Assembly (NCBI GenBank): GCA_031409495.1
Contig: JANNXI010000268.1
Coordinates: forward strand, 2,075-66,074
Direction of reading: 5' to 3'
Length of the DNA: 64,000 bases
Source: Betaproteobacteria bacterium
Lineage (GTDB): Bacteria > Pseudomonadota > Gammaproteobacteria > Burkholderiales > Usitatibacteraceae
The notes beneath the pieces were generated by a model, which was not told the DNA's origin, did no database searches, and saw nothing but the letters and a program-made list of their open reading frames with translations. Shown piece after piece: positions 4,065-29,078 of this stretch (positions are counted from its first letter, which is position 1; each line of letters begins with the position of its first letter). A program made the translations under genes and the position numbers.

Positions 4065-4170
4065 TTTTGGCTTCTCCTTTAATGTCGAAATTTTAACGCC
4101 ACCAAACCATCAAAACAATCTACTATAATTGATGATTACCTTCAAATAATTTGAATAAACAGGATTCCCT

Positions 4171-11545: not shown

Positions 11546-12358
11546 TTAAGCTAAAAATGCCTTAAACGCCCGCAAAAATGGCGCACTGATACGCAAAACA
11601 TCTGGATTGTTGCGCAACTGTATCAGTCCGGCCCCCGATTCATCGCGCTCTACCATCAACACTTCGCGCAGATTTACCACAGTAGATCGATGCACCTGCA
11701 AAAAAACCGCGGGATCGAGTTTTTGCAGTAGCGTCTTTAGTGATTCCTCAATTAAATGTTCACCGTTGCGGCTCACTACCCGCGTGTACTTGTTATCTGA
11801 CTGCAAAAAAACGACATCATCGACTGCAACTAGCTGGGTGCGGCGGCCAGCACTTGCAGCTAACCAACGTAAATAAGCGACGGGTTGCAGCTTGGGTTGG
11901 AGTTGGGGCAAGTCCCGCAACACGGGTTGCAGATCACCAGAAGGTAACGTGATCCGATTTCTCAACCGATCTATGCTGCGTTGCAGTCGTTCAGACGACA
12001 GCGGTTTCAACATATAGTCCACGGCGCCGCGATCGAACGCCGGTATTGCAAACGCATCGTAGGCAGTTACAAACACCACACGCGTTTCGTCGGGCAGTGC
12101 CTGCGCCAGCTCTAGGCCAGATTGGCCGGGAAGGTTTATATCAACAAAAGCGCAATGTGGTGCAGCGTGCGCCGCACCCTCCTGACAAGCCAATAAAGCT
12201 TCTTCCGCCGAGCCAAAAGCCCGTATTTCACCAAAGTCGGGCGCGAGTGTTGCAAGGAGCGCAACGAGCTCATCACGCAAACGTGGTTCATCCTCAACGA
12301 CTAGCACCCATCCGCCATTGCTGTGATCACCATAGTTCAGCTTTTCATCAGTTGCCAC
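11546..12358 (-). CDS. LytR/AlgR (LytTR) family response regulator
   Basis: Receiver (VLVVEDEPRLRDEL...VDYMLKP) plus a LytTR DNA-binding domain (VFLQSDNKYTRVVSRNGEHLIEESLKTL...FLQVHRSTVVNL). Confidence 0.9.
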   Translation of the reverse strand: MATDEKLNYGDHSNGGWVLVVEDEPRLRDELVALLATLAPDFGEIRAFGSAEEALLACQEGAAHAAPHCAFVDINLPGQSGLELAQALPDETRVVFVTAYDAFAIPAFDRGAVDYMLKPLSSERLQRSIDRLRNRITLPSGDLQPVLRDLPQLQPKLQPVAYLRWLAASAGRRTQLVAVDDVVFLQSDNKYTRVVSRNGEHLIEESLKTLLQKLDPAVFLQVHRSTVVNLREVLMVERDESGAGLIQLRNNPDVLRISAPFLRAFKAFLA

Positions 12359-12402
12359 GCAATTACTCCGCTAAGCGTTTAGCTATTTTCATCGTTGATA
12401 AG

Positions 12403-13665
12403 TCATTGCGTGGGTAGCCGCAACGTGGCGCGCACGCCACTTGCATCGCTACCCGTAGCGCTACTTGTATCACCACCTGCATGGCGATCTTCAATTTGCA
12501 TCTGCGCAACACCGCCATAGATTAGCAGCAACCGTTCGCGCAAGTTGCTCAATCCGCCCATGCTACCCATTCCGCGGTCTGGCAGCATCGCTAATACAGG
12601 CCCGTCATTATCAACTTCAATAACAAGTGCCGCACCATCCTGACTGCAGGTTACTGAAATTAAACCCGAACCATTGATACGTTCAATCCCGTGCTTTATT
12701 GCATTTTCAACTAGGATTAAAACACTTGCATTCGGGACCAACAGCTTGTGCAGTGACGCATCACTACTAATTACATATCGAAGGCGCTCGCCTAGCCGTA
12801 TTTGCATAATTTTTAAGTAGGCCTCAACTTTCTTTAACTCATCTGCCAGACTAATGGTTGTGCTTGCAGCAGTCTGGCTATTGGCACGCAAAAATTCGAT
12901 CAACGCATCAAGCATTGATTGCGCAACCAGCGGGCTTGCGGTGATACTAGCGCGCAAATGTGCCAAGGTATTGAATAAAAAATGCGGCTCAATCTGCGCA
13001 CGTAACAGCTGCAACTCTGCCTGCTCCGCACGCGCTCGCAATGCACCTTGTTGGTCAAGTGCATCGGCAACATCGTGTTGTGCGCGAACCCGCGTCCAAA
13101 TGGCCGCCCGCAGCGCTTCAACCTGCCGCGCACCTCGGCCCGCCTCAACCCAAAACAGCGCGTACAGCCAAGCATGCATGGGCTCGCAACTGATTTGTAA
13201 TGTGCTTCGCGTCGAAGGGTGCGCGCCGCCGTCATCCGCCGCGATAATCGTTAACTCATCGCTGCGCAACGTACGCAATCCAGTAGGCTTTACGCCACGC
13301 TCCAAAATATGTGCGGTCATTTCATTTGACGTCACGCGCTGTTCAACTGCACCAAACACAGACGTCACCGCTGCAACAGCAATTCGCATGGCTTGCGTTG
13401 CTGGTAGGTCAAGGCTCAGTGATTGGCGCTGCCCCGAAACTAGGGGGTTTGCGGTTGTTTTAGCGCCCCAAGAGGCTGCGACTAGTGACCGATATTGCAC
13501 CACTGCGGCCGCCGTGCCAATGCCGAAGGCAATCCATGGAAAAACCAGCAGCGCTGCAAGAAACGCGACGCTCATGCTAAAAATTGCCGTGATGGCCACC
13601 AACAACACCCACCACACCACGCCAATCCTTAACATCAACACGACATACGGTAACCCTACTTTCAT
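12403..13665 (-). CDS. LytS/YehU-type sensor histidine kinase
   Basis: His_kinase motif EPHFLFNTLAHLRA and ATPase motif ILVENAIKHGI. N-terminal TM pair. Confidence 0.85.
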   Translation of the reverse strand: MKVGLPYVVLMLRIGVVWWVLLVAITAIFSMSVAFLAALLVFPWIAFGIGTAAAVVQYRSLVAASWGAKTTANPLVSGQRQSLSLDLPATQAMRIAVAAVTSVFGAVEQRVTSNEMTAHILERGVKPTGLRTLRSDELTIIAADDGGAHPSTRSTLQISCEPMHAWLYALFWVEAGRGARQVEALRAAIWTRVRAQHDVADALDQQGALRARAEQAELQLLRAQIEPHFLFNTLAHLRASITASPLVAQSMLDALIEFLRANSQTAASTTISLADELKKVEAYLKIMQIRLGERLRYVISSDASLHKLLVPNASVLILVENAIKHGIERINGSGLISVTCSQDGAALVIEVDNDGPVLAMLPDRGMGSMGGLSNLRERLLLIYGGVAQMQIEDRHAGGDTSSATGSDASGVRATLRLPTQ

Positions 13666-14444
13666 TGCTGCTGCCCTTTGCTATTTTTAGACGGCGGTTG
13701 CACTGGAGGCGGCGTATTTTTACCGGCATCAAGCTCGATAGATTTCACCATTTTACCGTTGTCATCCAGTAGCTGCACACTTGGCTTACCATCGGCTGTT
13801 ACCAGCAACATCAACCGGGGTCTACCTTGCGCATCGGCTAAGCTTAGTGCGGATGCGCCATCACCGGTAGTGCCAAGCCGCACGCGATTATTGGGCAGCT
13901 GGCGCAGCTCACGCATTTGCGCGATGGCGGCGTCCCGCGCGGCTGGCTCAAGACCGCGAATAGTCTTCATGCGTTCTGCGCGTTGCATCAGGTCCAATTG
14001 CGTGCCATCTGCTTCGTCGTTGATAGCAAACATGCTAAACGCACGGCCACCGTCTTCGGCATGCAATAGCTGCATGACTTGGTCTTGTCTAAAGCGATCG
14101 AAAGTTAGACTCAAACCCGCTGACGCTTTGCCATCAGCGCCGACTGACCCTTTTTGGATCAAGCCACCATTTTCGGTGCCCTCATCATTCATAAACAGCA
14201 TGCCGGCAAATGCTTTGCGATCAGGGCGCGGTACCTCGCCGCCTTTCCAAGGTGAGCCGGGAAACTGCGCACGATTTGCAAGCACCATCCGTAAAGTACC
14301 ATCGGGCTCACGAATATTGATGCGGCCCACATCTATTTCGTCAAACTTCGTGGGTGGGGCTTTTGCAGCCATCAACAGTACGGCGGAAGTCATCACGACC
14401 ACACCTGCAGCTAATCCACATAGAAAATTGTTAGGTAGTTTCAT
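13662..14444 (-). CDS. exported/anchored hypothetical protein, first gene of the LytS/LytTR operon
   Basis: Start chosen at MKLPNNFLCGLAAGVVVMTSAVLL (GGAGAA RBS) rather than the track start at 14534. Its stop overlaps the kinase start by 4 nt. I recognise no family. Confidence 0.55.
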   Translation of the reverse strand: MKLPNNFLCGLAAGVVVMTSAVLLMAAKAPPTKFDEIDVGRINIREPDGTLRMVLANRAQFPGSPWKGGEVPRPDRKAFAGMLFMNDEGTENGGLIQKGSVGADGKASAGLSLTFDRFRQDQVMQLLHAEDGGRAFSMFAINDEADGTQLDLMQRAERMKTIRGLEPAARDAAIAQMRELRQLPNNRVRLGTTGDGASALSLADAQGRPRLMLLVTADGKPSVQLLDDNGKMVKSIELDAGKNTPPPVQPPSKNSKGQQQ

Positions 14445-14753
14445 TGGTTCTCCGATTATAAAAATGAAGTTAGCGTGGGCGTAGGCAGACTTTAGGCCTG
14501 TCAGGGGGATTAAAAGCGCAAGTAAGCGCTGCATAGTTACCCGTTCGCCGCTTCAACACTATCTGCGTTTCGGTGCGCGGCCGCGAGCCGTTTCGGACAC
14601 AGAACACCGGTTGGCAGACGAAAGCTGCGAACCAACCGATGAAATTATTTTGAAGCGCTCGGAAGAGATGGCATATTGGATCGCGACCTCACCATTTAGA
14701 AATGTGTCCAAAATATGTATTTGGTCATCGCCAGAGCACAGTTTTCAGATAAG

Positions 14754-14877: not shown

Positions 14878-15708
14878 ATGCGTCACCGCACGTTTCTTGA
14901 GTTTGCGCGTTATCGCTATCTTAAAATTGCGGCGCTCCTTGCCGCCAATTGCGCCCTCGCCTACGGCTGGTGGCGTTATCCGCTTGGGCACTATGGCGGC
15001 ACGCCGTTAGGTTATACCTTGGGCACGATTGGTGCAGTGCTCATTTTGTGGCTGATGTGGTTCGGAATTCAAAAACGCCGTTACCGCGCTACGCAAAACC
15101 TAAAAGGCTGGTTGTCTGCGCACGTGTATTTGGGCGGCGCGCTCATCGTGGTGGCGACGTTACACTCGGGTTTTCAGGTAGGTTGGAACATCCATACACT
15201 TGCCTATTTGCTGATGCTCATCGTCATCGCGTCAGGCTTTTTTGGTGTATTCACTTACCTACGCTTCCCGCGGTTGATGACTGAAAATTTGGCGGAAGAT
15301 ACCCTTGATAGCGTGGCGCTAAAAATCGCCGATATTGATCGAGAAGCCCGTAGATTAGCGCTTGGCATGCCCGACGAAATAAATAGTGTGGTGCTGCAAT
15401 CGGTGCAGGAAACGCGCATTGGCGGCGGCGTTATCGCGCAATTACGGGAACATGTGCGCAACTGCCCAACCAGCAACGCTGTGCAGATAGTCCACGCTTA
15501 TGCTGCAAACGTTAAGGGCGAAGAGGCGCAACGCCAGCAGAGTCTCTATACCCTAATGCTCCGTAAAGAACGATTAGTGGCGCGCGCACGAACCGATGTG
15601 CGCTACAAAGCCATGATGGAAATATGGCTCTATTTTCATGTACCGACGTCGTTTGCCTTACTGGCAGCGCTGACAGCGCACATCATTGCTGTATTTTTTT
15701 ACCGTTGA
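14878..15708 (+). CDS. 5-TM membrane protein with two bis-His helices (candidate di-haem cytochrome b-like)
   Basis: The track ORF starts at TTG 14827; ATG 14878 has a GAGG 9 nt upstream. TM helices carry HVYLGGALIVVATLH and HVPTSFALLAALTAH, each a His pair 14 residues apart. Confidence 0.6.
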   Translation: MRHRTFLEFARYRYLKIAALLAANCALAYGWWRYPLGHYGGTPLGYTLGTIGAVLILWLMWFGIQKRRYRATQNLKGWLSAHVYLGGALIVVATLHSGFQVGWNIHTLAYLLMLIVIASGFFGVFTYLRFPRLMTENLAEDTLDSVALKIADIDREARRLALGMPDEINSVVLQSVQETRIGGGVIAQLREHVRNCPTSNAVQIVHAYAANVKGEEAQRQQSLYTLMLRKERLVARARTDVRYKAMMEIWLYFHVPTSFALLAALTAHIIAVFFYR

Positions 15709-15727: not shown

Positions 15728-17647
15728 ATGAAAACTACGCTCACCACGATCACACGAAATAAAAAAGGCGAAGCCACCCTAACTTCAAGAGAAGTTACCG
15801 CTGAAACCTTACGCATCGGTCGCGGCGCTGATTGCAAACTGCATTTGTCGGATGCGCGAGTATCGCTGTTTCATGCCGAAATTATGACTAATTTTGGGCA
15901 CCCAAGTTACATCGAAGCGCGCCACGGGACGATTACCGTAGATGGCAAATCCACCACTGCGGCGGCACTCGAAGTAGGCCAGAAGATACTCATCGGACCT
16001 TTTGAACTCATCGTTTTACCGAACGCGAACGATATTGATATTGCGTTAAGCGTCGAGCTAATCGACCCGCTATCAGATGATCTTGATGCGGTGAAAAGCC
16101 AAATCAAAGCTGGACTTGCGCGCACATGGCTGTCAAAGCGGGCCTTAAGCTGGATTAGCGCGGTGAGCGTGTTGATGGTGTTTTTGGCCTGGCCCGTGTG
16201 GCATGCTCTCGAACGCGAAAAAGCGCTTTTAGTAGGAGCCAGCACGATGAAAGCACCAGATGCCAACTTGGTTAAAGCCGCCAAAGTTAAACCTGCGATC
16301 CACCCTGATGGCTCGTGGGATGTAGGCCCGCTTAGTAGCGCGCACACAAGCTTTGGCAGCAACTGCAGTGCCTGCCACCAACACCCGTTTCAGTCAGTGC
16401 AAAACCAAGCTTGTGAAGACTGTCATAAAAAAATTGGCTGGCATTTCGCACTCGATACCGCCCAATCAAAAGCCGTGCACAAAACTGTCTTTAGTGATGC
16501 CTATTGCGCTGATTGCCATCGCGATCACAAGGGCGCACTGGGATTGGTGCGAGGCGATTCTAAGCTTTGTACGGATTGCCACGGCAATCTAAAAGCCAAA
16601 CATCCGCAGACGGGGGTGTTGGACGTGGCAGACTTTAGCAAAGATCATCCGCCATTTAAGGTTTCAATGCTGCTGCGCGGCGCAGATAAGAAAAGCGCCG
16701 CGGCCCTAACACAGGCTGGCGTCCCCAACGTTCATATTGAACGCATCGCTCAAACCGACAAAACCCGCTACGTCGAATCATCTGGGCTTAAGTTTCCACA
16801 CGACGTGCACATAAGTGCCAAAGGTGTGCGCAGCCCTAGCGGCCGCGTACTCATGGAGTGCAAAAATTGCCATGAATCTGACGAAACCGGCACGCGTTTC
16901 AAACTAACCACCATGGCGGCACATTGCCAATCATGCCATTCACTAGAATTTGAGCCCAATGCCACGTCGCGCCAAGTGCCGCACGGCAAAATACCCGACG
17001 TCATCGCAACCGTGCGCGAACACTATGCCTTGGCAGCCCTCGGTCCTAACGCCGTTGACAATACCCCTGCCGCCTTTAACGCCGTTGAGCAACAACGCAG
17101 CAGCAAAACCGGAGCGCCTATTACTGCGGCGCTAAAAACACTGGCGTGGGCAAATAGCAAAGCGACGAACATCACCCAAGAGATTTTTGAAGTACGGCTG
17201 TGCTTCACCTGCCATGAAATTACCAAAACTAAAGATCTCAAAGCAAGTTTAGCCGTCAATAGCGGCGCAGCCGATGCAATAGAGGCGAATAGCCCTCCGT
17301 GGCAAATCACGCCGATTGTCATCACTCAGCATTGGCTGCCGAAATCGCGCTTTCCACACTCGGCGCACGCCACGGAGACATGCAGCAGTTGCCATGATGT
17401 GGCGAAATCAAAATTAAGTAGCGAAATTTCGATACCTAAAATCGAAAGCTGTCGCGAATGCCACGGCGGCAATGTAGTCACTAAAGATAAAGCGCCAGGC
17501 ACCTGTGAAACCTGCCACGGCTTTCACACAGGCAGCCCAAAATCTGGAGTCGCACCGATATTACCGGGCGTCAATCATCCAGCTCGTCTATTCAAAGTGG
17601 GTATCGATGCGCCACCTAAAGCGCCTACTTCGAGCGCAATTAAATGA
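15728..17647 (+). CDS. FHA domain - TM - decahaem c-type cytochrome fusion
   Basis: N-terminal FHA-like LRIGRGADCKLHLSDARVSLFHAEI...GQKILIGPFELIV. One TM (ALSWISAVSVLMVFLAWPVW). Ten CXXCH motifs: CSACH, CEDCH, CADCH, CTDCH, CKNCH, CQSCH, CFTCH, CSSCH, CRECH, CETCH. Confidence 0.85.
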   Translation: MKTTLTTITRNKKGEATLTSREVTAETLRIGRGADCKLHLSDARVSLFHAEIMTNFGHPSYIEARHGTITVDGKSTTAAALEVGQKILIGPFELIVLPNANDIDIALSVELIDPLSDDLDAVKSQIKAGLARTWLSKRALSWISAVSVLMVFLAWPVWHALEREKALLVGASTMKAPDANLVKAAKVKPAIHPDGSWDVGPLSSAHTSFGSNCSACHQHPFQSVQNQACEDCHKKIGWHFALDTAQSKAVHKTVFSDAYCADCHRDHKGALGLVRGDSKLCTDCHGNLKAKHPQTGVLDVADFSKDHPPFKVSMLLRGADKKSAAALTQAGVPNVHIERIAQTDKTRYVESSGLKFPHDVHISAKGVRSPSGRVLMECKNCHESDETGTRFKLTTMAAHCQSCHSLEFEPNATSRQVPHGKIPDVIATVREHYALAALGPNAVDNTPAAFNAVEQQRSSKTGAPITAALKTLAWANSKATNITQEIFEVRLCFTCHEITKTKDLKASLAVNSGAADAIEANSPPWQITPIVITQHWLPKSRFPHSAHATETCSSCHDVAKSKLSSEISIPKIESCRECHGGNVVTKDKAPGTCETCHGFHTGSPKSGVAPILPGVNHPARLFKVGIDAPPKAPTSSAIK

Positions 17648-19584
17648 TGAAGAAAGCCGTAAATTGGGCATCTTCAGGCAGTGCTATATTGCGATTTTGG
17701 GCGCTTTCTTTAACTTCTTTCGCGTTAGTCAGCTGCGGCAGTGGGGGTGATTCTGGATCAGGCAGCCCCGCGCCCGCGTCCCTGGTGACACCTGCCATCA
17801 CGGATTTTTTAAGTATTGAAGATGTGCAACGTATTGTTGCCCAAGGTGTGGCAGAAGCCACCATCCGTAAGCAGGCGGCGACATTCGCCGTAGTTGATCG
17901 CGTGGGTAATGTATTGGCGGTGTTCCGTATGACGGGTGCGGCTACTACTTTTAAAATCACCAGCAAACAAAACAGCAGCGATGGCGCAAAACAAATCGAT
18001 GGTGGTTTAGAAAATATTGATGTGCTGCCTGACACCTTTGCGGCCATCAGCAAAGCTATCACCGGTGCTTATTTGTCATCAAACGGCAATGCGTTTTCAA
18101 GCCGCACAGCAGGGCAAATTGTGCAAGAAAATTTTAATCCGCGCGAGGCAAATCAACCTGCCGGCCCGCTTTACGGTGTGCAATTTTCGCAGCTCTCCTG
18201 CTCTGACCTTATGCGCCGGGCTGAACACGGCACAATCGGCCCTAAACGCTCCCCGTTAGGGCTTTCCGCTGACCCTGGCGGGTTGCCAATCTACAAAAAT
18301 AATCGACTCGTTGGCGGTATCGGTGTAATCTCCGACGCGGTGTATGGGCTGGATGCCGACATTAGTGATTTTGATGATAGCAGCGATGAACGCATTGCCG
18401 TGGCCGCCACCATCGGCTATGCCGCGCCAGATGATATTCGCGGCAATCGCATCAGCGTTGATGGCCGCACGTTGCGTTATATCGATTCTGAATCAACACT
18501 AAGCAACGGCGCACCCAGCAGCGGCTATGCAAATTTAGCCGGGGCAAGTATACCAGTCGGCGGCTATTTTGACGGCGCCGTGCGCGCTGGGACCAGTTTT
18601 GGTTCAATTGCATCCGGCTACCAAGCAGATGGCGGCGTATTTGCAGCACTAAATGGCTTTGTATTGACGGACAATGATGGTAAAAATCGCTACCCAATCG
18701 TTGCTGGGGGCGATGGCTTTTTAAAGTCAAATGAAGTGAGCACGATTGCTCAAGAAGCCCTAAAAGTAGCCAACCGCGCGCGCGCGCAAATTCGTCGGCC
18801 ACTGGGCTCAGCAGCACAAGTTACCATCACCGTAGTCGATACCTTAGGCAATGCGCTCGTGCTTGTGCGTACGCCTGATGCACCTGTTTTCGGTACTGAT
18901 GTTGCATTGCAAAAAGCACGCACGGCAGTCACTTTCTCGCACCCTACATTTGCCGCCGAGCTTAGCAATTTGCCAAGCTTTACCTACCTAGGCGCGAATG
19001 GCGCAACGGTTCCTGCGTTTCGTAGCTTTAACGAATACGTAGCGGCTAGCCGCACGTTTTTTAATGACCCTACCATGCTCGCTAATGGCATCGCGTTTTC
19101 AAGCCGCGCGCTTGGTAACGCATCGCGCCCGTTTTTTCCGGATGGCATCCAAAGCACTGAAGCTGGCCCGTTCAGTACCCCGTTTAAAAACTGGAGCCCG
19201 TTTCATTTGGGTTTGCAACTCGATCTGAACTACAGCGCTATTGTGGCGGCGGCGACAGGGTCAGCGAAATTTGACTGCACAGGGCTAATCCGCGCTAAAA
19301 ACGGCATTCAGATATTTGCGGGCGCTGTGCCCATTTATCGCAATGCGCAGTTGGTGGGCGCTATTGGCATATCTGGCGACGGCATTGACCAAGATGATAT
19401 GGTCGCCTTTTTAGGTTTAAGCAATGCTGGAAAGGCCCTAAATACGGGCATCGGCAATGCACCAAAGGCAATTCGTGCGGATACATTAGTACCCCGTGGC
19501 GAAGGCACGCGCTTGCGCTACGTAAATTGTCCGGTTGCGCCATTCAATGGTTCTTCGGAACAAAATGTGTGCGAGGGCATATGA
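17644..19584 (+). CDS. lipoprotein with two DUF336/GlcG(HbpS)-like domains
   Basis: Lipobox LTSFALVSCGSGG. Two copies of the GlcG-type signature: AVVDRVGNVLAVFRMTGA ... PIYKNNRLVGGIGVISD, and TVVDTLGNALVLVRTPDA ... PIYRNAQLVGAIGISGDGIDQDD. ATGA overlap with the upstream gene. Confidence 0.7.
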   Translation: MMKKAVNWASSGSAILRFWALSLTSFALVSCGSGGDSGSGSPAPASLVTPAITDFLSIEDVQRIVAQGVAEATIRKQAATFAVVDRVGNVLAVFRMTGAATTFKITSKQNSSDGAKQIDGGLENIDVLPDTFAAISKAITGAYLSSNGNAFSSRTAGQIVQENFNPREANQPAGPLYGVQFSQLSCSDLMRRAEHGTIGPKRSPLGLSADPGGLPIYKNNRLVGGIGVISDAVYGLDADISDFDDSSDERIAVAATIGYAAPDDIRGNRISVDGRTLRYIDSESTLSNGAPSSGYANLAGASIPVGGYFDGAVRAGTSFGSIASGYQADGGVFAALNGFVLTDNDGKNRYPIVAGGDGFLKSNEVSTIAQEALKVANRARAQIRRPLGSAAQVTITVVDTLGNALVLVRTPDAPVFGTDVALQKARTAVTFSHPTFAAELSNLPSFTYLGANGATVPAFRSFNEYVAASRTFFNDPTMLANGIAFSSRALGNASRPFFPDGIQSTEAGPFSTPFKNWSPFHLGLQLDLNYSAIVAAATGSAKFDCTGLIRAKNGIQIFAGAVPIYRNAQLVGAIGISGDGIDQDDMVAFLGLSNAGKALNTGIGNAPKAIRADTLVPRGEGTRLRYVNCPVAPFNGSSEQNVCEGI

Positions 19585-21431
19585 GTAAAATGCCTACAAG
19601 ACACATGCCTGCGACGACAATACCTTCAAGCAAGCCAATTTTAAAGGCAGTGGTCTTTGCGCTGCTGAGCGCGTCGCTTTCAAGCAACTACGCACAAACA
19701 CCTCCAGTACTCCCGGTACTCCCAGTTGATAGCACAGCAAGCGATGAGGCAATCGAGCGCCAACGCCCGCAAAGTAAGCCGCTCAAATACGAACTGCCAC
19801 CAATTGATCCAAATCAAGTATCGCCACCAACGCCGCTCATGCCGCGTGAGTTAGTATCCGTGCCGGATCGTTGGCGCATCGTCGATACCTTGGGCATTAA
19901 ATTCCCTTGGTACGATCCGTACAATCACAATGTGTATAAAGGCGATAAGCCGTTTGAGCCGTTTGCTAAATGGGGCAATGACTGGTTCTTAGCGCTTTCA
20001 GCAATTTCGGACTCACTCATTGAAGCGCGGCGCTTGCCTACACCCGTGGGTGCGCAATCTACGGCTGGTGCCGACGCCAGCGATGTGTTTGGTCGCCCGC
20101 GGCAAACAGGCCTAGTGCAAACACTTATTTTCTCCGTGGGCGTAACCAAAGGCAACACCACCTTTAAGCCGCCTGACTATGAGTTTCGATTTGTGCCCGC
20201 TATTCATATTAACCATGCGCGTACACGCGAAGTACGCGCAGTGCGGGTTGATCCCCGTGAAGGTTTTAATCGCACCGATTCGCACCTTGGCATACAAGAA
20301 GCCTTTGCTGATGTGCACCTGCGCAACGTATCTGAACGCTATGATTTTGATTCGCTGCGCGTGGGCATTCAGCCCTTCACATCGGATTTTCGTGGTTTTC
20401 TGTTTCAAGATGTGCCCATTGGTGTGCGCTTGTTTGGTACCCGTGATAATAATAAATTGCAATACAACTTGGCGTACTTTCGACGCATCGAAAAGGACAC
20501 CAATAGCGGCTTAAACGATATTAATCAAACCCTGCGGCGCGATCATATACTGGCTGCAAACGTCTATAAACAGGACTTCCCCGTTCTTGGCCACACCACA
20601 CAAGCTACCATCATCCACAACATCAATCGTGAATCGAGTCGTGATTACTATGACCGCAATGGCGCGCTAGTTCGTCCAGCAGTATTGGGCGATGTACGTG
20701 GCCATAACTATCGCGTAACCTATCTTGGACTCAACGGTGACGGGCATTTTGGCAAATGGAATTTAACTACCTCTCTATATGCAGCGCTCGGTCGGGATAA
20801 TCGCCATCCGCTCGCACAAAAGCCGCAAACCATTCGTGCGGGCATGGCGGCAGCTGAACTCTCGCGCGACTTTTCATGGCTGCGCGTCCGCGCGAATGCC
20901 TTGGTTGCCTCTGGCGACAAAGACCCTTTTGATAGTCGCGCCACCGGCTTTGATGCGATTTTTGAAAACCCGCAATTTGCGGGTGCCGACACTAGCTTTT
21001 TCATTCGCCAAGCCGTCCCCTTGATTGGGGGTGGTGGCGTAGCGCTTTCTGGACGCAACGGTATTTTGCCGTCGCTGCGGTCATCAAAAGACCAAGGCCA
21101 ATCTAATTTTGTAAATCCTGGTTTAACCCTGTTGGGCGTCGGCGCAGATGCCGACCTAACGCCGCAAGTTCGGGTGATTGCCAATGTATCAAAATTGCAG
21201 TTTGTAAACACATCGGTATTGGGTGTGCTGCGTAATCAGACCCCGCCGTCAAAAGACCTAGGTGTGGATGTTTCTTTGGGAGCGCAGTATCGGCCATTTA
21301 TGTCACAGAACATTGTCTTTAATGCCTCTGCGTCGGCTTTGCTACCCGGAAAAGGGCTTAAACAGCTCTATGATGAAGGCAAGCGTGGAGCGCAATACTC
21401 AGTTTTACTAAATCTAGTGCTCACATATTAA
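19581..21431 (+). CDS. putative outer-membrane beta-barrel protein
   Basis: Start at ATG 19581 (ATGA overlap with the upstream stop) gives MSKMPTRH...ILKAVVFALLSASLSSNYAQ, a signal peptide. Alternating amphipathic segments and a C-terminal ...YSVLLNLVLTY aromatic terminus. I did not recognise the family. Confidence 0.6.
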   Translation: MSKMPTRHMPATTIPSSKPILKAVVFALLSASLSSNYAQTPPVLPVLPVDSTASDEAIERQRPQSKPLKYELPPIDPNQVSPPTPLMPRELVSVPDRWRIVDTLGIKFPWYDPYNHNVYKGDKPFEPFAKWGNDWFLALSAISDSLIEARRLPTPVGAQSTAGADASDVFGRPRQTGLVQTLIFSVGVTKGNTTFKPPDYEFRFVPAIHINHARTREVRAVRVDPREGFNRTDSHLGIQEAFADVHLRNVSERYDFDSLRVGIQPFTSDFRGFLFQDVPIGVRLFGTRDNNKLQYNLAYFRRIEKDTNSGLNDINQTLRRDHILAANVYKQDFPVLGHTTQATIIHNINRESSRDYYDRNGALVRPAVLGDVRGHNYRVTYLGLNGDGHFGKWNLTTSLYAALGRDNRHPLAQKPQTIRAGMAAAELSRDFSWLRVRANALVASGDKDPFDSRATGFDAIFENPQFAGADTSFFIRQAVPLIGGGGVALSGRNGILPSLRSSKDQGQSNFVNPGLTLLGVGADADLTPQVRVIANVSKLQFVNTSVLGVLRNQTPPSKDLGVDVSLGAQYRPFMSQNIVFNASASALLPGKGLKQLYDEGKRGAQYSVLLNLVLTY

Positions 21432-21439: not shown

Positions 21440-24400
21440 ATGCGTGCGTTTATAACCCTAATTTTTTGCGTTCCGTTCCTAAGCTTAGGACTCGCTTTTA
21501 CGCTCGCCAATGCTAACGCCAACGCTACGGTTGGCCCCGTGGCCGCTGCTACGCCGCAAAAAGCGACTCACCTCAAACATCCCGCTGCGCCCGCGCGCCA
21601 AACCGCAAAAGACGCTGAGTTAAAATCTGCTGGCTGCGTAACTTGCCATACCGGCACGGATAAACACACCATGCACGCCAACCCGGCAGTGGTATTAGGT
21701 TGCACCGATTGTCACGGCGGTGATGTGGGCGTGGCTAAACCCAAAGATGCGATTTATAAGGGTGTGGGCGACGCCCAATATAGTGCCGCGATGAATCGCG
21801 CCCACGTAAATCCGACTTTTCCGAAAGCGTGGAACTATCCATCATCTGCCAATCCTGAAAGCAGCTACACCCTGCTGAACCGCGAAAATAAAGACTATGT
21901 GCGCTTTATCAACCCCGGTGATTTACGGGTCGCGCGGGAAGCCTGCGGTGCTTGCCACCTAGAAACCGTGCAAGCGGTAGAACGTAGCTTGATGTCCACC
22001 AGCGCCATGCTTTGGGGGGGGGCAGCATACAACAATGGTATCTTGCCTTATAAGCGCTATATTTTAGGCGAATCCTATACCGCCGATGGTGTGGGCGCTT
22101 CGATTAAGAACCCCGTGCCAGTGAATGAGCATATGACAAAAATGGGCATATTGCCTGCGCTTACTGCCTTACCTGCATGGGAAACCGTGGCACCCGGTGA
22201 TGTGTTCCGCGTATTTGAGCGCGGCGGGCGCGTTATTAATTCTGGCTTTCCTGAAATTGGTCTACCCAACAGCACAGGGGTACTGCAAAAGCTTGACGAA
22301 CCGGGCCGGCCGGATATTAAACAATCCAATCGTGGCCCCGCGACGGGTCAACGCATTGCCGTGCCGGTTTTAAACATCGCTAAAACGCGCTTGAATGATC
22401 CGCACCTTTGGTTTCTCGGCACCAACGACCAGCCCGGCGATTACCGCTCGTCCGGCTGCACCGCTTGCCATACCGTTTACGCTAACGATCGCGACCCGAA
22501 GCGTGCCGGGTTTTACGGCAAATACGGTAATGAAGGCAAATCAATCAGCGTTGATCCGACGATTTCCAAAACTGAGTCTGGACACCCACTAAAACACGAA
22601 TTTACCCGCGCGATACCCTCGTCGCAATGCATGGTTTGCCATATGCATCAACCCAATATTTTCGTCAATAGCTTTTACGGCACCACGATGTGGGATTACG
22701 AATCAGATGCACCGGCAATGTGGCCGAAGCAGCAAAAATATCCAACTGATACAGAGATTAGCAAAATACTTAAGCGCAACCCGGAAGAGGCGGCCACTCG
22801 GGGCTTGTGGGGAAATGCAGATTTCTCTAAAAAAGTTTCGGAACTGAACCCGACGCTTAAAGATGGCCAGTTTGCCGATTACCACGGCCACGGCTGGAAT
22901 TTTCGCTATGTGTATAAGCGCGATCGCAAAGGCACCCTGTTGGACAAAGACAGTAAACCGGTAGCCGATAATGATCCCGAAAAATTCAAAAAAGCGGTGC
23001 ATTTGACGTCCATCCATTTGGATATTGGCATGCAATGCGTTGACTGCCATTTTGTTCAGGACGCGCATGGCAATGGCCATATTTATGGCGAAGTAGCCGC
23101 TGCCGTAGAAATTGATTGCGCCGATTGCCACGGCACCGCCAATAAACTGCCGACACTGCGCACCAGCGGCCCTGCGGCAAAACCGGGTGGCCGTGATTTG
23201 CTCACCCTACGCACGCAAGATGGCCGTAAACGCTTTGAATGGAAAGATGACAAGCTCTATCAACGCTCAGCCCTTGACCCGAAACTTGAATGGCAGATGA
23301 GTTTAGTCAAAAACAGCGTGACCGAAGGCCATCCCGAATACAACGAAAAAGCGGCACGCGCTAAGCTGATGCATAGCGGACAGGCGGGCAAAGATGGCGC
23401 TTGGGGCGTGAGCAAAAACGCAGTTAATCCGAACGCGGATTATGCGCACAATGAAGACAAGATGACCTGCTATTCTTGCCATCTTTCATGGACCACATCT
23501 TGCGGCGGCTGCCACTTGCCGATTCAAGCGAACGCCAAAACCGATCGCCTGCATTATGAAGGTGGTGAGACCCGCAACTTCGCTACCTATAACCCGCAAG
23601 TTGCCAGAGATGATATGTTCCAACTGGGTAAGCACGGCACGGTAAAAGGCTCGCGCATTACGCCGGTGCGGTCTAGCTCGGCGCTAGTTTTAAGCTCAAC
23701 AAATTCAAACCGTGAAAAAATTTATATACAACAACCGCCGATAGCTTCTAGCGGATTCTCCTCCCAAGCCTTTGCCCCGCACTATCCGCATACTGAGCGC
23801 AAGACTGAAACCAAGACGTGTAGCGATTGCCACCTCAGCACCGCCAACGATAACAACGCCATCATGGCGCAGTTACTTCTGCAGGGCACTAATTTCGTCA
23901 ACTTTATCGGCTTTAATGCTTGGGTAGGCAGCGCTAAAAATATAGAAGCCGTGCAGGTTACTGAATGGGATGAACCACAATCAGTGATCGGCAGCTATCT
24001 GCAAAAATATGCTTATCCCGATTACTTTGCAAGCCACGAAAAGCGCAGCTTAGAACTGCCCGAAGCGCACGACCATTCCACAGGCGGCGCGGCGCGTTGC
24101 ATCGCTCTACGGGGCGAATATTTGTTTGTAGCCGAAGGTGAAGGTGGCTTCAGAGTTTATGACGTCGCTAACATCGCCAACAAAGGCGTATCACAACGCA
24201 TTATCACCGCGCCGTTTTCACCACTTGGTCAAGACGCCCACATCGCCAGCAAAAACGCGACTTGCATGGCGCTACCCACCAATCAACCCATCGCACCCGA
24301 GCGTAACAAGGGCGACCTAATGCGCATTACCAACGAAGAACAACCTTTCCACCCCATGTATCACTACGCCTTCATTGTCGATGCGGTTGAGGGCTTAATC

Positions 24401-25237
24401 GTCACGAATGTCGATACCTTTGCTGATGGCGAGCCGCGCAATAATTTTTTAAAGCGCAACCTAACCTGGAACGAAAACGGCGTGCTGAAAGGTGCGCGGC
24501 ACATCACCCTAGGCGGCCATTATGCGTACATAGCAACCGATATGGGCTTAGTTATTTTGAACTTAGATGATCCGCTAAAGCCCCGTATTTCAGCCACCTT
24601 GCCACTATCTGACATGCGTGATAGCGCCCTGCAGTTCCGTTATTTATTCGTCACAACAGCTGCAGGCTTACAAACAGTTGACATCACTTCACCCACGCAA
24701 CCTGAACTAATCACCTCCGCTAACATCGCACTTGGTGATGCACGCGGCGTGTATGTCGCGCGCACCTACGCCTATGTAGCAGCAGGCAAAGATGGCTTAG
24801 TTATTATTGATATTGAAAAGCCACAAACACCAAAAATTGCCACCCGTTTCACCGCCGATGGGAAGCTCAACGATGCGCAGGCCGTCGTCGTTGGGTCTAC
24901 CAATGCTTCCCTGTTTGCCTATGTAGCCGACGGCACGAACGGCTTAAAAGTAGTACAGCTGACCAGCCCTGATTCGCAGCCAAAATTTTATGGCTTTTCC
25001 CCCGAACCTAAACCGCAACTCATTGCGTGGCGCAAAACAAAATCACCTGCACTTGGAATTGCAAAAGGCCTAGATCGTGACCGTGCAGTCGATGAAACAG
25101 GCGGCCAAATCGCGGTTTTTGGGCGAATTGGTTCACGCCCGTTCAACGCCTCCGAAATGGCGAAGTTCTATAAGAATCCCGATGGTAGTTTGTGGACGGT
25201 ATCAGACGAAATAAAGAAAGTAGGCGTACAAAAATGA
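21440..25237 (+). CDS. exported decahaem c-type cytochrome with C-terminal LVIVD-repeat beta-propeller
   Basis: Signal peptide MRAFITLIFCVPFLSLGLAFTLANA. Ten CXXCH motifs: CVTCH, CTDCH, CGACH, CTACH, CMVCH, CVDCH, CADCH, CYSCH, CGGCH, CSDCH. The C-terminal 400 aa hold repeated GGFRVYDVANI / GLVILNLDDPLKP / GLQTVDITSPTQP / GLVIIDIEKPQTP / GLKVVQLTSP units, typical of LVIVD repeats. Confidence 0.85.
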   Translation: MRAFITLIFCVPFLSLGLAFTLANANANATVGPVAAATPQKATHLKHPAAPARQTAKDAELKSAGCVTCHTGTDKHTMHANPAVVLGCTDCHGGDVGVAKPKDAIYKGVGDAQYSAAMNRAHVNPTFPKAWNYPSSANPESSYTLLNRENKDYVRFINPGDLRVAREACGACHLETVQAVERSLMSTSAMLWGGAAYNNGILPYKRYILGESYTADGVGASIKNPVPVNEHMTKMGILPALTALPAWETVAPGDVFRVFERGGRVINSGFPEIGLPNSTGVLQKLDEPGRPDIKQSNRGPATGQRIAVPVLNIAKTRLNDPHLWFLGTNDQPGDYRSSGCTACHTVYANDRDPKRAGFYGKYGNEGKSISVDPTISKTESGHPLKHEFTRAIPSSQCMVCHMHQPNIFVNSFYGTTMWDYESDAPAMWPKQQKYPTDTEISKILKRNPEEAATRGLWGNADFSKKVSELNPTLKDGQFADYHGHGWNFRYVYKRDRKGTLLDKDSKPVADNDPEKFKKAVHLTSIHLDIGMQCVDCHFVQDAHGNGHIYGEVAAAVEIDCADCHGTANKLPTLRTSGPAAKPGGRDLLTLRTQDGRKRFEWKDDKLYQRSALDPKLEWQMSLVKNSVTEGHPEYNEKAARAKLMHSGQAGKDGAWGVSKNAVNPNADYAHNEDKMTCYSCHLSWTTSCGGCHLPIQANAKTDRLHYEGGETRNFATYNPQVARDDMFQLGKHGTVKGSRITPVRSSSALVLSSTNSNREKIYIQQPPIASSGFSSQAFAPHYPHTERKTETKTCSDCHLSTANDNNAIMAQLLLQGTNFVNFIGFNAWVGSAKNIEAVQVTEWDEPQSVIGSYLQKYAYPDYFASHEKRSLELPEAHDHSTGGAARCIALRGEYLFVAEGEGGFRVYDVANIANKGVSQRIITAPFSPLGQDAHIASKNATCMALPTNQPIAPERNKGDLMRITNEEQPFHPMYHYAFIVDAVEGLIVTNVDTFADGEPRNNFLKRNLTWNENGVLKGARHITLGGHYAYIATDMGLVILNLDDPLKPRISATLPLSDMRDSALQFRYLFVTTAAGLQTVDITSPTQPELITSANIALGDARGVYVARTYAYVAAGKDGLVIIDIEKPQTPKIATRFTADGKLNDAQAVVVGSTNASLFAYVADGTNGLKVVQLTSPDSQPKFYGFSPEPKPQLIAWRKTKSPALGIAKGLDRDRAVDETGGQIAVFGRIGSRPFNASEMAKFYKNPDGSLWTVSDEIKKVGVQK

Positions 25238-26637
25238 TATTACAAACAACTTTGTGGCGCATCGTCATTTGCTGTTTTTTTTGTGCCGCCACTAGCACCA
25301 TCACGGCACAAGCCACCTTACCCTATCATTCCAAAAATGAAACCTTGGGTACCGTCACCTGCGCATCCAGCTTATGCCATGGGGCGATCAAGCAGTGGAA
25401 AGAATCAAATGTCCTGCAGAACGAATACCTTACTTGGTCGCGCACGGATAAGCATGCTCGCGCCTACAGCGTGCTGCTAAACGACCGTTCTAAGCGCATC
25501 GTCAAAAATTTAAATTTGCCTCAGCCAGCGCACGAAGCCAAAATTTGCCTTGATTGCCACGCGCACGTGGTACCCGAAGATAAGCGTGGAGACCGCTTTG
25601 TACTGAGCGATGGCATAACGTGCGAAAGCTGCCACGGCCCCGCTGAAAAGTGGATAAAAACACATGTAGAACCAGCGCAAAAGGGTGTAAGTCAACACGA
25701 AAAAAATATTGCAGATGGGATGTATTCAACTTCCGACGCCGTGAGCCGCGCCAGCCTTTGTATGTCTTGCCACTTTGGCAATCAAGATAAATTCGTCAAT
25801 CACCGCATTATGGCCGCAGGCCACCCGCGCTTAAGCTTCGAGCTCGATACCTTTACTGAATTGGCGCCCAAGCACTTTGTGATTGACGACGACTATGCAG
25901 CACGCAAGCAAGTATGGGATGGTGCAAAAACCTGGGGCGTGGGCCAAGCCTTAGCGGTAGCCGAAACCATGCGGATGCTGCAAGATCCAAAACACGGGCG
26001 CGACGGTTTGTTTCCTGAACTAGTGCTGTTCGATTGTCACGCCTGCCACCACCCCATGGCTGAAAATCGCTGGCAACCAAAATCGGCGCTGGGCAATCGC
26101 GTGGCACCGGGTTTGGTACGCTTAAATGATTCCAGCATGTTGATGCTGCGGGCGATTGCGAGCGTGATTGATCCTAAATTAGGCGCTTCAGTAAGCGCGC
26201 AAACGCAAAAATTGCATCGCGCTATTGCGGGCGAAGCCAATGGCATAGCCGATGCAATGGTTGAGGCGCGCAACTTGCAAGCACTGGCCCACGCCGCCGC
26301 CCGCGTCATTGCCGAAACCAACTTTACCAGCACCACCATGCAAAATGTGCTGCAGCGCCTCGTTCAAGACGGCGCTCAAAGCGGTTATACCGATTTCGCG
26401 GTGGCCGAACAAGCAACACTTGCCATTGGTAGTATCGGTGCCTTTTTAGCCAAGCGTGGCGCGCTGCCGCAGCCGCGCGAATTTAATGCGCAGCTAAAAA
26501 AGTTAAATCTCATCTTAAAAAATGACGAGCAATTTAAGCCTGCTGAATTCGCGCATTTGCTTAAAGGCTTAAGCGTTTACGCCGCCGTAAAACTAACCAA
26601 CAAAGCGCAAGTAGCCGCAACCGGAGCTAAGCCATGA
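25234..26637 (+). CDS. exported multihaem c-type cytochrome (c554-like N-terminus)
   Basis: Start at ATG 25234 (ATGA overlap) gives the signal peptide MILQTTLWRIVICCFFCAATSTITAQA. Motifs are CLDCH, CESCH, CMSCH, CHACH plus CASSLCH (CX4CH). The C-terminal half is helical. Confidence 0.75.
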   Translation: MILQTTLWRIVICCFFCAATSTITAQATLPYHSKNETLGTVTCASSLCHGAIKQWKESNVLQNEYLTWSRTDKHARAYSVLLNDRSKRIVKNLNLPQPAHEAKICLDCHAHVVPEDKRGDRFVLSDGITCESCHGPAEKWIKTHVEPAQKGVSQHEKNIADGMYSTSDAVSRASLCMSCHFGNQDKFVNHRIMAAGHPRLSFELDTFTELAPKHFVIDDDYAARKQVWDGAKTWGVGQALAVAETMRMLQDPKHGRDGLFPELVLFDCHACHHPMAENRWQPKSALGNRVAPGLVRLNDSSMLMLRAIASVIDPKLGASVSAQTQKLHRAIAGEANGIADAMVEARNLQALAHAAARVIAETNFTSTTMQNVLQRLVQDGAQSGYTDFAVAEQATLAIGSIGAFLAKRGALPQPREFNAQLKKLNLILKNDEQFKPAEFAHLLKGLSVYAAVKLTNKAQVAATGAKP

Positions 26638-29078
26638 CCATGCAAACTGAGCCAACCGTTGAGACCTTTGATATCGCCATTATCGGCTCTGGGCCTGCAG
26701 GTATTTCTGCTGCAGGGCGCGCAGCAGAACTAAAAATCCCGCACGTGCTATTAGAAGCGCAAGCTAACCACTTTGCCGACACTATTTTTAAATACCAGCG
26801 CGGTAAACACGTGATGGCTGAGCCAGCGATTTTGCCCTTGCGTAGCCCGCTGGATTTTGGTGAGGGCAAGCGCGAAGCAATATTAGGTGTTTGGGAAACC
26901 CAGCTAAAAGCATTAGGGGTCAACCTGCAATTCAATGCGCAAGTAAGCGGCATAAAAGGTGAAAAAGGCAATTTTGAAATTTCGCTAGCAAGCGGCAAAA
27001 CCATCCGCGCCAAGCATATTGTGCTTGCCATCGGATTACAGGGAAATTTACGCAAACTAGGCGTGCCGGGTGAAGATTTGCCCAACATTCAGTACCAGCT
27101 TGATGATCCAGATGAATTTGATGATGAAACCATTATTGTGGTGGGTGCTGGTGACGCTGCGATCGAAAATGCGCTGGCTCTGACCAAGCAAAATCGGGTT
27201 ATTTTAACAAACCGTAGCGAGGAGTTTGCGCGGGTTAAAGATGGTAACGCCGCACTAATTTTAGCTGCGGACAAAGCCGATAAAGTATCAGTGCGCTACA
27301 GCACTTCGGTCGCGCGGGTAGAGGCTACCGAAATCACCGCCACAAATAAATTTCCATTGCTATTCGTTGCCAACACCCCGGCTGGTCAGGAAAACATTCC
27401 GTGTCATCGCATTATTGCGCGCTTAGGTGCGATTGCGCCGCGCAAGTTGGTTGAAAGTTTTGGGATTGCGTTTCCTAACGCCAATATGGACGCAGTGCCG
27501 GCTTTATCAGAACGCTACGAATCGAACGTACCTGGCTTGTATATTATTGGTGCATTGGGCGGCTATCCCCTAATAAAACAAGCGATGAATCAAGGCTATG
27601 AAGCCATTGAATACATACTAGGTAATAACGTTGAACCAGCTGATGAGCCGGTTTTGCGCGCAAAGTTTAAAGGCATAAAAATTGCTAGCGTTGCTGAAGC
27701 GGTACAAGGCATTCAACACAGTGTGCCACTGCTTTCAAGCCTGACACAACTGCAATTGCGCGAGCTGTTAATGGAAAGCGAAATACATGCCTTAGACGCC
27801 AATCAAGTTGTGTTCAATCGCAATGATTACACCAATTCTTTCTACTCTATTGTTAGTGGAAAAGTTACCGTTGAATTCACCGATGCTAAAGGTGTAGCGG
27901 TAAAGTTTGAACTGGGCCAGGGCGAGTTTTTTGGTGAGATGGGCCTGTTGTCGGGCCGCCGTCGCACGGCTACAATTCGCACCTGTGCCCAAACGCAACT
28001 GCTCGAAACCCCACGGCGGAGCATGTTGAAGCTGCTGGCCTCCGTTGAATCAGTACGCAAAACCCTCGACACAGTAATGATGAAGCGGGTGGTGCGGCAA
28101 ACATTATCTCAAGACTTATGGGATCACCAAGTAGAGGAACTGGTTAAAACCGCTACGCTCAAACGCTACGCCACCAATGAAGCGCTGTTTAAAGAGGGCG
28201 ATAAAGCCGATGGCTTACACCTGATTCGGCGCGGCTCAGTCACGGTATCGCGCACCATCGGCGGCAAAGAAATTGTATTATCCTATGTTGCCGCAGGAAA
28301 TTATGTGGGTGAAATGGCAATGCTTTCTAACGCACCCCGCTCAGCCACCGTGCGCGCTGCTGTGCCCACTGAAGTGATCTTGTTGGAAGCGAAAATGCTG
28401 GCCAACGTAATGTCTGATCACACCGTGATTCAAAAGCGCATGAGCGTAGAATCGATGCAGCGTATTAAAAGCAATCAAGCCATGGAGACCAAATCGGAAT
28501 CCGGCAACATTATCTCTTTCCTGATGCAGCAAGGCTTGGGCGAAGCCACCGATGTGTTGCTCATTAACGAAAGCTTGTGCATACGCTGCAACAATTGTGA
28601 AAAAGCCTGTGCCGATACGCACGATGGCACTTCACGCTTAAACCGTGAAGCCGGTCCCACATTTGCGCAAATTCACGTACCCACATCTTGTCGCCACTGT
28701 GAGCACCCGCATTGCATGAAAGATTGCCCGCCAGACGCCATTAGGCGTTCTGCAAACGGTGAAGTCTATATTGCAGATACGTGCATCGGGTGCGGCAATT
28801 GCGAGCGCAATTGCCCTTACGGCGTGATTCAAATGGCAGCGTCTGACCCAAACCCAAAACGGCCGTCGCTTATTTCTTGGCTCATGCTGGGCCTAGGGCA
28901 AGAACCGGGGGTAGCTAAGGTCAACAAAGATAAAACGCTACCGAAGAAAGCCGTTAAGTGCGACATGTGCAAAGACCAAAAAGGCGGCGCTGCGTGCGTG
29001 CGGTCGTGCCCTACCGGTGCGGCGACACGGGTAGCACCAGAGAAATTTTTGGAATATACACGCGGTGGCGCGCAGTAA
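26634..29078 (+). CDS. FAD/NAD(P)-binding oxidoreductase - 2x cyclic-nucleotide-binding domain - polyferredoxin fusion
   Basis: FDIAIIGSGPAGISAAGRAAE and IIVVGAGDAAIENA dinucleotide folds. Two cNMP signatures, FGEMGLLSGRRRTATIRT and VGEMAMLSNAPRSATVRA. Cys clusters CIRCNNCEKAC, CRHCEHPHCMKDCP, CIGCGNCERNCP, CDMC...CVRSCP. ATGA overlap with the upstream gene. Confidence 0.85.
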   Translation: MTMQTEPTVETFDIAIIGSGPAGISAAGRAAELKIPHVLLEAQANHFADTIFKYQRGKHVMAEPAILPLRSPLDFGEGKREAILGVWETQLKALGVNLQFNAQVSGIKGEKGNFEISLASGKTIRAKHIVLAIGLQGNLRKLGVPGEDLPNIQYQLDDPDEFDDETIIVVGAGDAAIENALALTKQNRVILTNRSEEFARVKDGNAALILAADKADKVSVRYSTSVARVEATEITATNKFPLLFVANTPAGQENIPCHRIIARLGAIAPRKLVESFGIAFPNANMDAVPALSERYESNVPGLYIIGALGGYPLIKQAMNQGYEAIEYILGNNVEPADEPVLRAKFKGIKIASVAEAVQGIQHSVPLLSSLTQLQLRELLMESEIHALDANQVVFNRNDYTNSFYSIVSGKVTVEFTDAKGVAVKFELGQGEFFGEMGLLSGRRRTATIRTCAQTQLLETPRRSMLKLLASVESVRKTLDTVMMKRVVRQTLSQDLWDHQVEELVKTATLKRYATNEALFKEGDKADGLHLIRRGSVTVSRTIGGKEIVLSYVAAGNYVGEMAMLSNAPRSATVRAAVPTEVILLEAKMLANVMSDHTVIQKRMSVESMQRIKSNQAMETKSESGNIISFLMQQGLGEATDVLLINESLCIRCNNCEKACADTHDGTSRLNREAGPTFAQIHVPTSCRHCEHPHCMKDCPPDAIRRSANGEVYIADTCIGCGNCERNCPYGVIQMAASDPNPKRPSLISWLMLGLGQEPGVAKVNKDKTLPKKAVKCDMCKDQKGGAACVRSCPTGAATRVAPEKFLEYTRGGAQ

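Follow-up and report, generated by a model that had tools for sequence, protein, structure and literature searches.

The closest described relatives of the gene considered here are known from three reports on Gallionellaceae. The gene, at 15728-17647 (+), lies in a stretch of 64,000 nucleotides (the window) from a betaproteobacterium of the Usitatibacteraceae (assembly GCA_031409495.1, contig JANNXI010000268.1, positions 2,075 to 66,074 of the forward strand), and joins a forkhead-associated (FHA) domain to a periplasmic decahaem cytochrome c. He et al. 2017 (PMC5566968, Supplementary Table 6) listed a triad of genes in Gallionella ES-2 and two other Gallionellaceae, comprising a multihaem cytochrome of 544-556 residues with nine haems, an inner-membrane protein (IMP) of 308-310 residues with five transmembrane helices, and a redox protein of 796-805 residues. 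The FHA domain went unnoticed there, and the authors, seeing no porin gene in the neighbourhood, considered a part in extracellular electron transfer less likely for the triad. Hoover et al. 2023 described a 'Forkhead-associated protein' cytochrome cluster with ten CXXCH motifs in 27 Gallionellaceae genomes. A 2026 preprint on Ferrigenium straubiae (bioRxiv 10.64898/2026.01.22.701106) described a nonahaem cytochrome, 'NHC', with a cytosolic FHA domain, a neighbour with five transmembrane helices and a [4Fe-4S] neighbour; it found NHC expressed under all four growth conditions, stated that FHA together with a multihaem domain was previously unreported, and likened the protein to NapC/NirT/NrfH/CymA.

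The window version, which has ten haems and lies in a seven-gene operon together with an LVIVD cytochrome, is thus a further member of a family already noticed, and the fusion itself is already in print. The initial annotation, made from the sequence alone, did not know this architecture from characterized respiratory systems; it is indeed uncharacterized, but the three reports above remove its novelty. What we appear to add is the breadth of the family, the degeneracy of its phosphothreonine (pThr) site, the modularity of the triad, and its linkage to porin-cytochrome modules. With slightly better than even confidence, we read the protein as the inner-membrane wire of a trans-envelope electron conduit, its FHA domain serving as a docking or assembly module independent of phosphorylation.

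In many pathways of extracellular electron transfer and iron oxidation, the passage of electrons across the inner membrane is the step least well understood, and the family is a candidate answer to it: a constant module of three inner-membrane-linked proteins that recurs in hundreds of uncultured bacteria, among them Burkholderiales, Lysobacteraceae, Gallionellales, Methylophilaceae and sphingomonads. The module carries two kinds of cytoplasmic regulatory-type domain, the FHA domain and a pair of cyclic-nucleotide (cNMP) domains. Should either kind prove to control assembly of the complex, it would be a new way to switch respiration.

Architecture of the FHA-cytochrome

The open reading frame (ORF) encodes 639 residues. 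It starts 19 nt past the stop codon of the upstream gene, at the same Met-Lys with which homologues begin, and its own stop codon overlaps the ATG of the next gene (ATGA at 17644). The initial annotation had recognized an FHA pattern in the N-terminal ~100 residues, followed by one transmembrane helix and ten CXXCH motifs, and each of these elements was borne out. The pattern residues G31-R32, C36, L38, L40, D42, V45-S46, H49-A50, I52 and G84..I87.I89-G90 are all present. Against a gathering cut-off of 20.7, Pfam FHA (PF00498) reaches 24.7 bits with the full-length protein and 28.4 bits with residues 1-135 alone. An AlphaFold2 model built from 84 homologues is all-beta over residues 1-111, with 11 strands and pLDDT 91-97, and an extra strand at 105-111 packs on the domain with high confidence. 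In a Foldseek search of the PDB with this model the top 50 matches were FHA domains only, GarA and OdhI being the best (E 1.5e-5, target-normalized TM-score 0.74-0.79); the structural neighbours include the pThr-binding GarA, OdhI, Rv0020c and Rv1747. Sequence searches of the PDB agree with the assignment, and 64 of 67 N-terminal domains from the family match PF00498 (E<0.01).

A single hydrophobic helix was found, at residues 139-157, within a helix that AlphaFold2 extends over 138-173. Haem c is attached on the periplasmic side of the membrane. The FHA domain must therefore be cytoplasmic and the cytochrome periplasmic, as the initial annotation had assumed, since an N-terminal signal peptide is absent, the conserved K137-R138 precede the helix, and the haems are attached in the periplasm. 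The residues just before the helix are conserved to differing degrees (R138 97%, S136 79%, K137 74%, T133 56%).

The ten CXXCH motifs are at residues 213, 229, 260, 281, 378, 400, 492, 552, 575 and 593 and are invariant among the 84 homologues. Exactly ten further His residues are invariant in the same set (206, 239, 267, 307, 358, 361, 419, 544, 547 and 600), and because their number equals that of the motifs, the pattern fits bis-His ligation of all ten haems. Between the transmembrane helix and haem 1 runs a tether of about 45 residues, modelled with low confidence, so that the first CXXCH comes about 55 residues past the helix. A tether of this length argues against direct quinol oxidation in the manner of NrfH/CymA and for electron exchange with a b-type partner.

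The phosphothreonine site

In canonical FHA domains the ligands of pThr are the Arg of a G-R motif, the Ser of S-x-x-H with the residue that follows it, and the Asn of an N-G loop; the His is structural, as in Rad53 FHA1 and GarA. The residue after the Ser is Arg, Lys or Asn, and mutagenesis of Rad53 FHA1 showed that loss of that Ser or of the Asn abolishes phosphopeptide binding. We scored conservation at the corresponding positions in two sets, one of 84 close relatives and one of 300 distinct family members; ranges below span the two.

G31 and R32 are kept in 99-100% and H49 in 84-94%. At position 46, that of the canonical Ser, Ser is found in just 19-21% of proteins and Ala in 38-64% (21% and 38%, respectively, among the 300), the remainder including Asn, Gly, Arg and Glu. 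Position 47 is Leu in 87-95% (87% among the 300) rather than Arg, Lys or Asn. In the N-G loop (beta6-beta7) the signature Asn gives way to Gly, Ala, Asp or a gap, Asn occurring in at most 4% and in about 0% of the 300; in the window protein, which has G31, R32 and H49, this position is His66. A profile-to-GarA alignment gives the same substitutions. With both the Ser and the Asn unconserved, the domain is, as judged from sequence, an FHA fold with a non-canonical site that departs from the G-R, S-x-x-H, N-G signature. Other positions are strongly constrained (D42 100%, R44 90-100%, G90 99%, and also P91, R10, N11 and G14), which argues that the domain is functional.

A regular-expression search for the catalytic-loop motif of Hanks-type kinases found none in the 64-kb window or within 10 kb on either side of 83 related loci. 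Pfam scans of about 46 window ORFs likewise found no Ser/Thr kinase or PP2C domain; the same scans found histidine kinases and response regulators. The proposal of the initial annotation that phosphorylation directs assembly or gating of electron transfer is thus unsupported by the sequence, in that Ser46 is a minority residue, the Asn is practically absent and a linked Hanks-type kinase was not found in the regions searched.

Family size and distribution

A survey for fusions of this kind, as the initial annotation had advised, recovered more than 300 distinct relatives. In a collection of 5.8 billion proteins the window protein has more than 330 relatives and a distant member 141, and a scan of GTDB species genomes gave 204 encoding stretches. 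When only the FHA domain was used as the query of an exhaustive profile search, 822 proteins came back at E<=1e-10; of the 84 full-length proteins among the 148 best, 71 have 9-10 CXXCH motifs. Databases list members as 'cytochrome c3 family protein' or, for some of them at NCBI, as 'FHA domain-containing protein'.

The carriers are almost all metagenome-assembled genomes (MAGs), from Usitatibacteraceae, Casimicrobiaceae, other Burkholderiales, Arenimonas, Lysobacteraceae, Moraxellaceae and Methylophilaceae, and further from Gallionellales, Gallionella, Sulfurisoma, Sulfuriflexus, Sphingobium, Croceibacterium and a few Vicinamibacteria. The window protein is about 33-35% identical to a subfamily of ~550 residues that holds the Gallionellales members (measured against the proteins of loci L071 and L079). 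The FHA domain is kept in relatives as far as 28-30% identity, with no loss in about 300 members, and is therefore ancestral to the family.

Six proteins of 450-926 residues (P0156, P0161, P0165, P0204, P0208 and P0229) carry 3-7 tandem FHA copies that resemble this subfamily and have no haem motifs.

Partner proteins

The IMP gene lies immediately upstream of the FHA-cytochrome gene in all 76 loci where the region is present, and adjoins it in every locus not cut by a contig end. It probably starts with the ATG at 14878 rather than with the TTG at 14827. Three invariant motifs mark the protein: W78-x3-H82-x13-H96 in the third transmembrane helix, S119-G120-x-x-G123 in the fourth and W250-x3-H254-x13-H268 in the fifth. 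The pairs H82/H96 and H254/H268 are invariant (64-73 homologues). These motifs, together with a weak match to Ni_hydr_CYTB (24.9 bits against a cut-off of 30.1), make the IMP a putative binder of two b-haems. A conserved cytoplasmic loop of about 115 residues contains an invariant Cys, C196, which is part of a conserved Cys-Pro-Thr motif.

A flavo-Fe-S protein of 814 residues completes the triad and is always clustered with the FHA-cytochrome. It combines a TrxR/Bdr-like FAD/NAD(P)H module, two cNMP domains of the PKA/CRP type and a C-terminal HycB-like module with four [4Fe-4S] clusters, and has no transmembrane helix. A cyclic-nucleotide-regulated redox enzyme of this build seems to be uncharacterized. 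In locus L003 the gene at 2368-4602, some 5 kb upstream of the cluster, encodes a CHASE2-guanylate/adenylate cyclase, which could supply the cNMP to which the 814-residue protein would respond.

Gene cluster and outer-membrane modules

Seven genes occur in the same order at about 80 loci. They encode a membrane protein of ~276 residues, the FHA-cytochrome, an HbpS/GlcG-like lipoprotein (~640 residues), a putative outer-membrane barrel (~620) that has a signal peptide and ends in an aromatic residue, an LVIVD decahaem cytochrome (~1260), a c554-like cytochrome (~450) and a cytoplasmic protein (~810). The cluster often adjoins ccm haem-maturation genes. Table 1 gives the window copy.

Table 1. 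Coordinates of the FHA-cytochrome gene, its parts and the neighbouring genes of the operon
Feature	Position	Strand	Basis or remark
IMP, 276 residues, inner-membrane protein with five transmembrane helices, putative di-haem b	14878..15708	+	
FHA-cytochrome, whole gene: FHA fold, one transmembrane helix, periplasmic decahaem cytochrome c	15728..17647	+	
FHA-fold domain, residues 1-111, cytoplasmic, 11 beta strands	15728..16060	+	Pfam, AlphaFold2, Foldseek
Cytoplasmic linker, residues 112-138, ending in conserved juxtamembrane T133-W-L-S136-K137-R138	16061..16141	+	
Single transmembrane helix, residues ~139-160, predicted N-in/C-out	16142..16207	+	
Periplasmic decahaem domain, residues 206-600	16343..17527	+	Pfam Cytochrome_C7, c3_2, Paired_CXXCH
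Lipoprotein, repeated HbpS/GlcG-like domains, lipobox LVSCG	17644..19584	+	
Putative outer-membrane beta-barrel, signal peptide, ends ...LVLTY, no Pfam match	19581..21431	+	Putative porin from position and features
Decahaem cytochrome, 1265 residues, C-terminal LVIVD-repeat beta-propeller, putative cell-surface cytochrome	21440..25237	+	
c554-like periplasmic cytochrome, four CXXCH and one CX4CH (residue 57 of long ORF)	25234..26637	+	
Cytoplasmic flavo-Fe-S protein, 814 residues, third constant triad member	26634..29078	+	

Other loci carry the triad in different company. A Methylophilaceae contig (L071) has the flavo-Fe-S, IMP and FHA-cytochrome genes alone, the last with nine haems. Contigs from Croceibacterium and Sulfuriflexus have the triad contiguous and the outer genes differently placed, and on a Gallionellales metagenome contig (L084, 4595-13807) the triad stands directly upstream of genes for an MtoA-like multihaem cytochrome and an MtrB_PioB porin. 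The flavo-Fe-S gene is adjacent to the rest of the triad in L071, L084, L085 and L086; in the window it belongs to the same operon and is not adjacent. The rearranged loci keep the three genes while the outer genes vary, and so mark the triad as a module that goes with porin-cytochrome modules of the outer membrane of at least two kinds. The Gallionellales arrangement suggests that the triad can act as inner-membrane partner to the Mto iron-oxidation complex. Linkage of the triad to porin-cytochrome modules answers the objection of He et al. 2017.

Two candidates were rejected in this comparison. A link through LVIVD to the Uet cluster of Tenderiales was dropped, the LVIVD protein there being unrelated in context. 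An upstream ORF of 877 residues in a culture-BP MAG (L079), considered as a fusion, has no Pfam domains and is probably over-extended.

Proposed role and alternatives

From the architecture, fold, conserved residues and gene linkage we infer a constant core in which the flavo-Fe-S protein, the di-haem b protein and the decahaem c wire would work in series. Electrons would pass from the cytoplasmic FAD and Fe-S centres through two b-haems across the membrane to the ten c-haems, and on to a variable outer module, which in the window would be the c554-like cytochrome, the HbpS-like lipoprotein, the barrel and the LVIVD decahaem cytochrome, and on the Gallionellales contig the MtoA/MtrB-like pair. 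Flow could run either way, as export driven by NAD(P)H or as metal oxidation feeding the membrane. The flavo-Fe-S protein is soluble and has to be held at the membrane, for which the FHA domain and the IMP loop are the available elements; the FHA domain on the cytoplasmic face would hold that protein, the 115-residue loop of the IMP, or both, to the complex. We favour docking because proteins that join an FHA domain, a transmembrane helix and a periplasmic domain recur as scaffold subunits of trans-envelope machines. Our confidence is higher for the role as a conduit and lower for any specific docking partner.

Several observations weigh against this reading, and some of them speak for a genuine pThr reader, in which a Hanks-type kinase encoded elsewhere would phosphorylate the IMP loop, the flavo-Fe-S protein or the FHA-cytochrome's own linker, and binding would gate the conduit. 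The domain passes the PF00498 cut-off, and its top structural matches are phosphopeptide-binding FHA domains (GarA/OdhI) and not YscD. The scaffold model itself, the YscD cytoplasmic domain PF16697, matches 66 of 67 N-terminal domains of the family (counted by E-value, at E<0.01), in support of the FHA fold, but gives the window protein 25.5-29.3 bits, under the gathering cut-off of 33.2, so membership of YscD/PrgH was rejected. The window protein itself retains Ser46, beside the conserved G31-R32 and H49. The chief ligand of the phosphate, the Arg of G-R, does not vary. A second and near-invariant Arg, R44, is two residues N-terminal to position 46 and by strand geometry may face the pocket as well, so that R32 and R44 might form an anion or phosphate site with a changed geometry. 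The two cNMP domains in the same module are a second regulatory input, showing that the system is regulated. Because the pThr site is degenerate across the family, in the Ser, the following residue and the Asn alike, and no kinase or PP2C was found in the window or within 10 kb of the 83 loci, we nevertheless hold a canonical phospho-switch to be unlikely. A variant would make the triad a split NOX-like exporter, with an NAD(P)H-FAD-[4Fe-4S] dehydrogenase passing electrons to di-haem b and decahaem c, and with the FHA domain, through a re-modelled R32/R44 anion site, recruiting the dehydrogenase only upon phosphorylation of a partner or cNMP binding. We think this quite improbable; if true, it would be the first FHA-controlled respiratory conduit, with assembly of the complex as the switch for respiration with extracellular or mineral acceptors, or for electron uptake from these. 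Further points against the docking conduit concern the partners. The AlphaFold2 model of the IMP has five helices and is mediocre (pLDDT 72); searched against the PDB it gave no significant structural match (best E 0.14, to chemoreceptor four-helix bundles), and a profile search of PDB sequences found nothing, so the b-haem nature of the IMP rests on its motifs. Shorter triads of multihaem cytochrome, IMP and redox protein without FHA (He et al. 2017) imply that docking of the redox partner does not strictly need the domain.

The FHA domain might instead act within or between copies of the protein, either by GarA-like self-binding of the T133-W-L-S136-K-R segment, giving autoinhibition, or by FHA-FHA contacts that bundle decahaem wires into oligomers. 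PrgH and YscD, built as FHA domain, transmembrane helix and periplasmic domain, form rings; the strand at 105-111 packs on the domain, and the segment is highly conserved. Its conservation is equally explained by positive-inside anchoring at the membrane, however, and T133 is conserved in just 56%; we give this alternative a rather poor chance. Even less can be said for the idea that the FHA domain is a leftover of evolution, or a simple cytoplasmic 'stopper' that sets how the anchor helix is oriented and binds nothing specific: the degenerate ligand-binding residues would suit it, but the surface-loop residues G31, R32, D42, R44, G90, P91, R10, N11 and G14 are invariant or nearly so down to 28-35% identity, and the domain is lost in none of about 300 members. 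We regard it as barely credible and retain the phosphorylation-independent docking module.

Other features of the window

Divergent from the cytochrome operon, at 11546-14534 (-), are genes for a LytS-type histidine kinase, a LytTR response regulator and a protein of 290 residues with a single transmembrane helix. The three are not conserved beside the cluster elsewhere; the response regulator is weakly matched (27% identity) in three Arenimonas loci. At 59667-63583 the G+C fraction falls to 0.44-0.45 over an M78 peptidase (IrrE-like) and helix-turn-helix pair, a gene of the DUF6791+ThiF family and an ORF of 299 residues without a Pfam match. This region may be a mobile or defence island.

Comparison with known systems

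NapC/NirT/NrfH/CymA resemble the window protein in that a single N-terminal helix anchors a periplasmic multihaem domain. They differ in having no cytoplasmic domain and in placing haem 1 at the membrane surface, where the window protein has its tether; membership was rejected, with no NapC/NirT Pfam match at E<0.1 and the first CXXCH so far past the helix. Membership of other multihaem families was also rejected on scores: TmcA (29 bits against a cut-off of 114), QrcA (24 against 180) and the MtrA/DmsE decahaem family TIGR03508 (17 against 192.2). CbcL of Geobacter and Tmc/Hmc of Desulfovibrio couple a membrane cytochrome b to a periplasmic multihaem c, Tmc/Hmc adding cytoplasmic Fe-S proteins. 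They share with the triad the logic by which the inner membrane is crossed, and differ from it in that they are not known to have an FHA domain or an FAD/cNMP protein.

In overall build, the protein is like YscD/PrgH/EscD of type III secretion, TagH/Fha of type VI secretion and GltG of gliding motility, each with an N-terminal cytoplasmic FHA fold, one transmembrane helix and a periplasmic domain. YscD-type FHA domains, too, are known to be without the pThr-binding residues. The models Yop-YscD_cpl, GltG and TagH match the window protein weakly, with scores all far below the family cut-offs, and its periplasmic part is a decahaem cytochrome in place of ring-building or secretion domains.

The PCC3 and PCC4 systems bring together a barrel, multihaem cytochromes and a protein of ~300 residues with five transmembrane helices, whose signature, WX3HX13H twice and SGXXG, was compared by He et al. 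2017 (PMC5566968) with the di-haem ferric-reductase/NOX (NOX/FRD) domain and with cytochrome b. The window IMP has the same helices and motifs, a likeness drawn from motifs with haem b putative. PCC4 is the nearer in its 4-, 5- and 10-haem cytochromes and in an Fe-S (PF13247) gene adjoining the IMP gene, but is described without an extracellular cytochrome; the cytochromes of PCC3 have a median of 21-34 haems and low complexity (PMC5566968). An FHA domain, LVIVD repeats and an HbpS-like component, set against the window by description, are unmentioned for either.

The Gallionellaceae triad and NHC are closest. They share the cytoplasmic FHA domain, the one transmembrane helix, the periplasmic domain of 9-10 haems, and neighbours that are a protein with five transmembrane helices and a [4Fe-4S] protein of ~800 residues. 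Compared by description, all three components (the cytochrome, the five-helix protein with two HX13H motifs and the ~800-residue Fe-S protein) are found among the window genes. Gallionellales and Gallionella proteins were recovered as homologues through L071, and the gene order of the triad in L071 and L084 matches the published description. The window protein differs from NHC in having ten haems, not nine, and its triad is split, the flavo-Fe-S gene standing last in a seven-gene operon whose other members include the barrel, the LVIVD decahaem cytochrome, the HbpS-like lipoprotein and the c554-like cytochrome.

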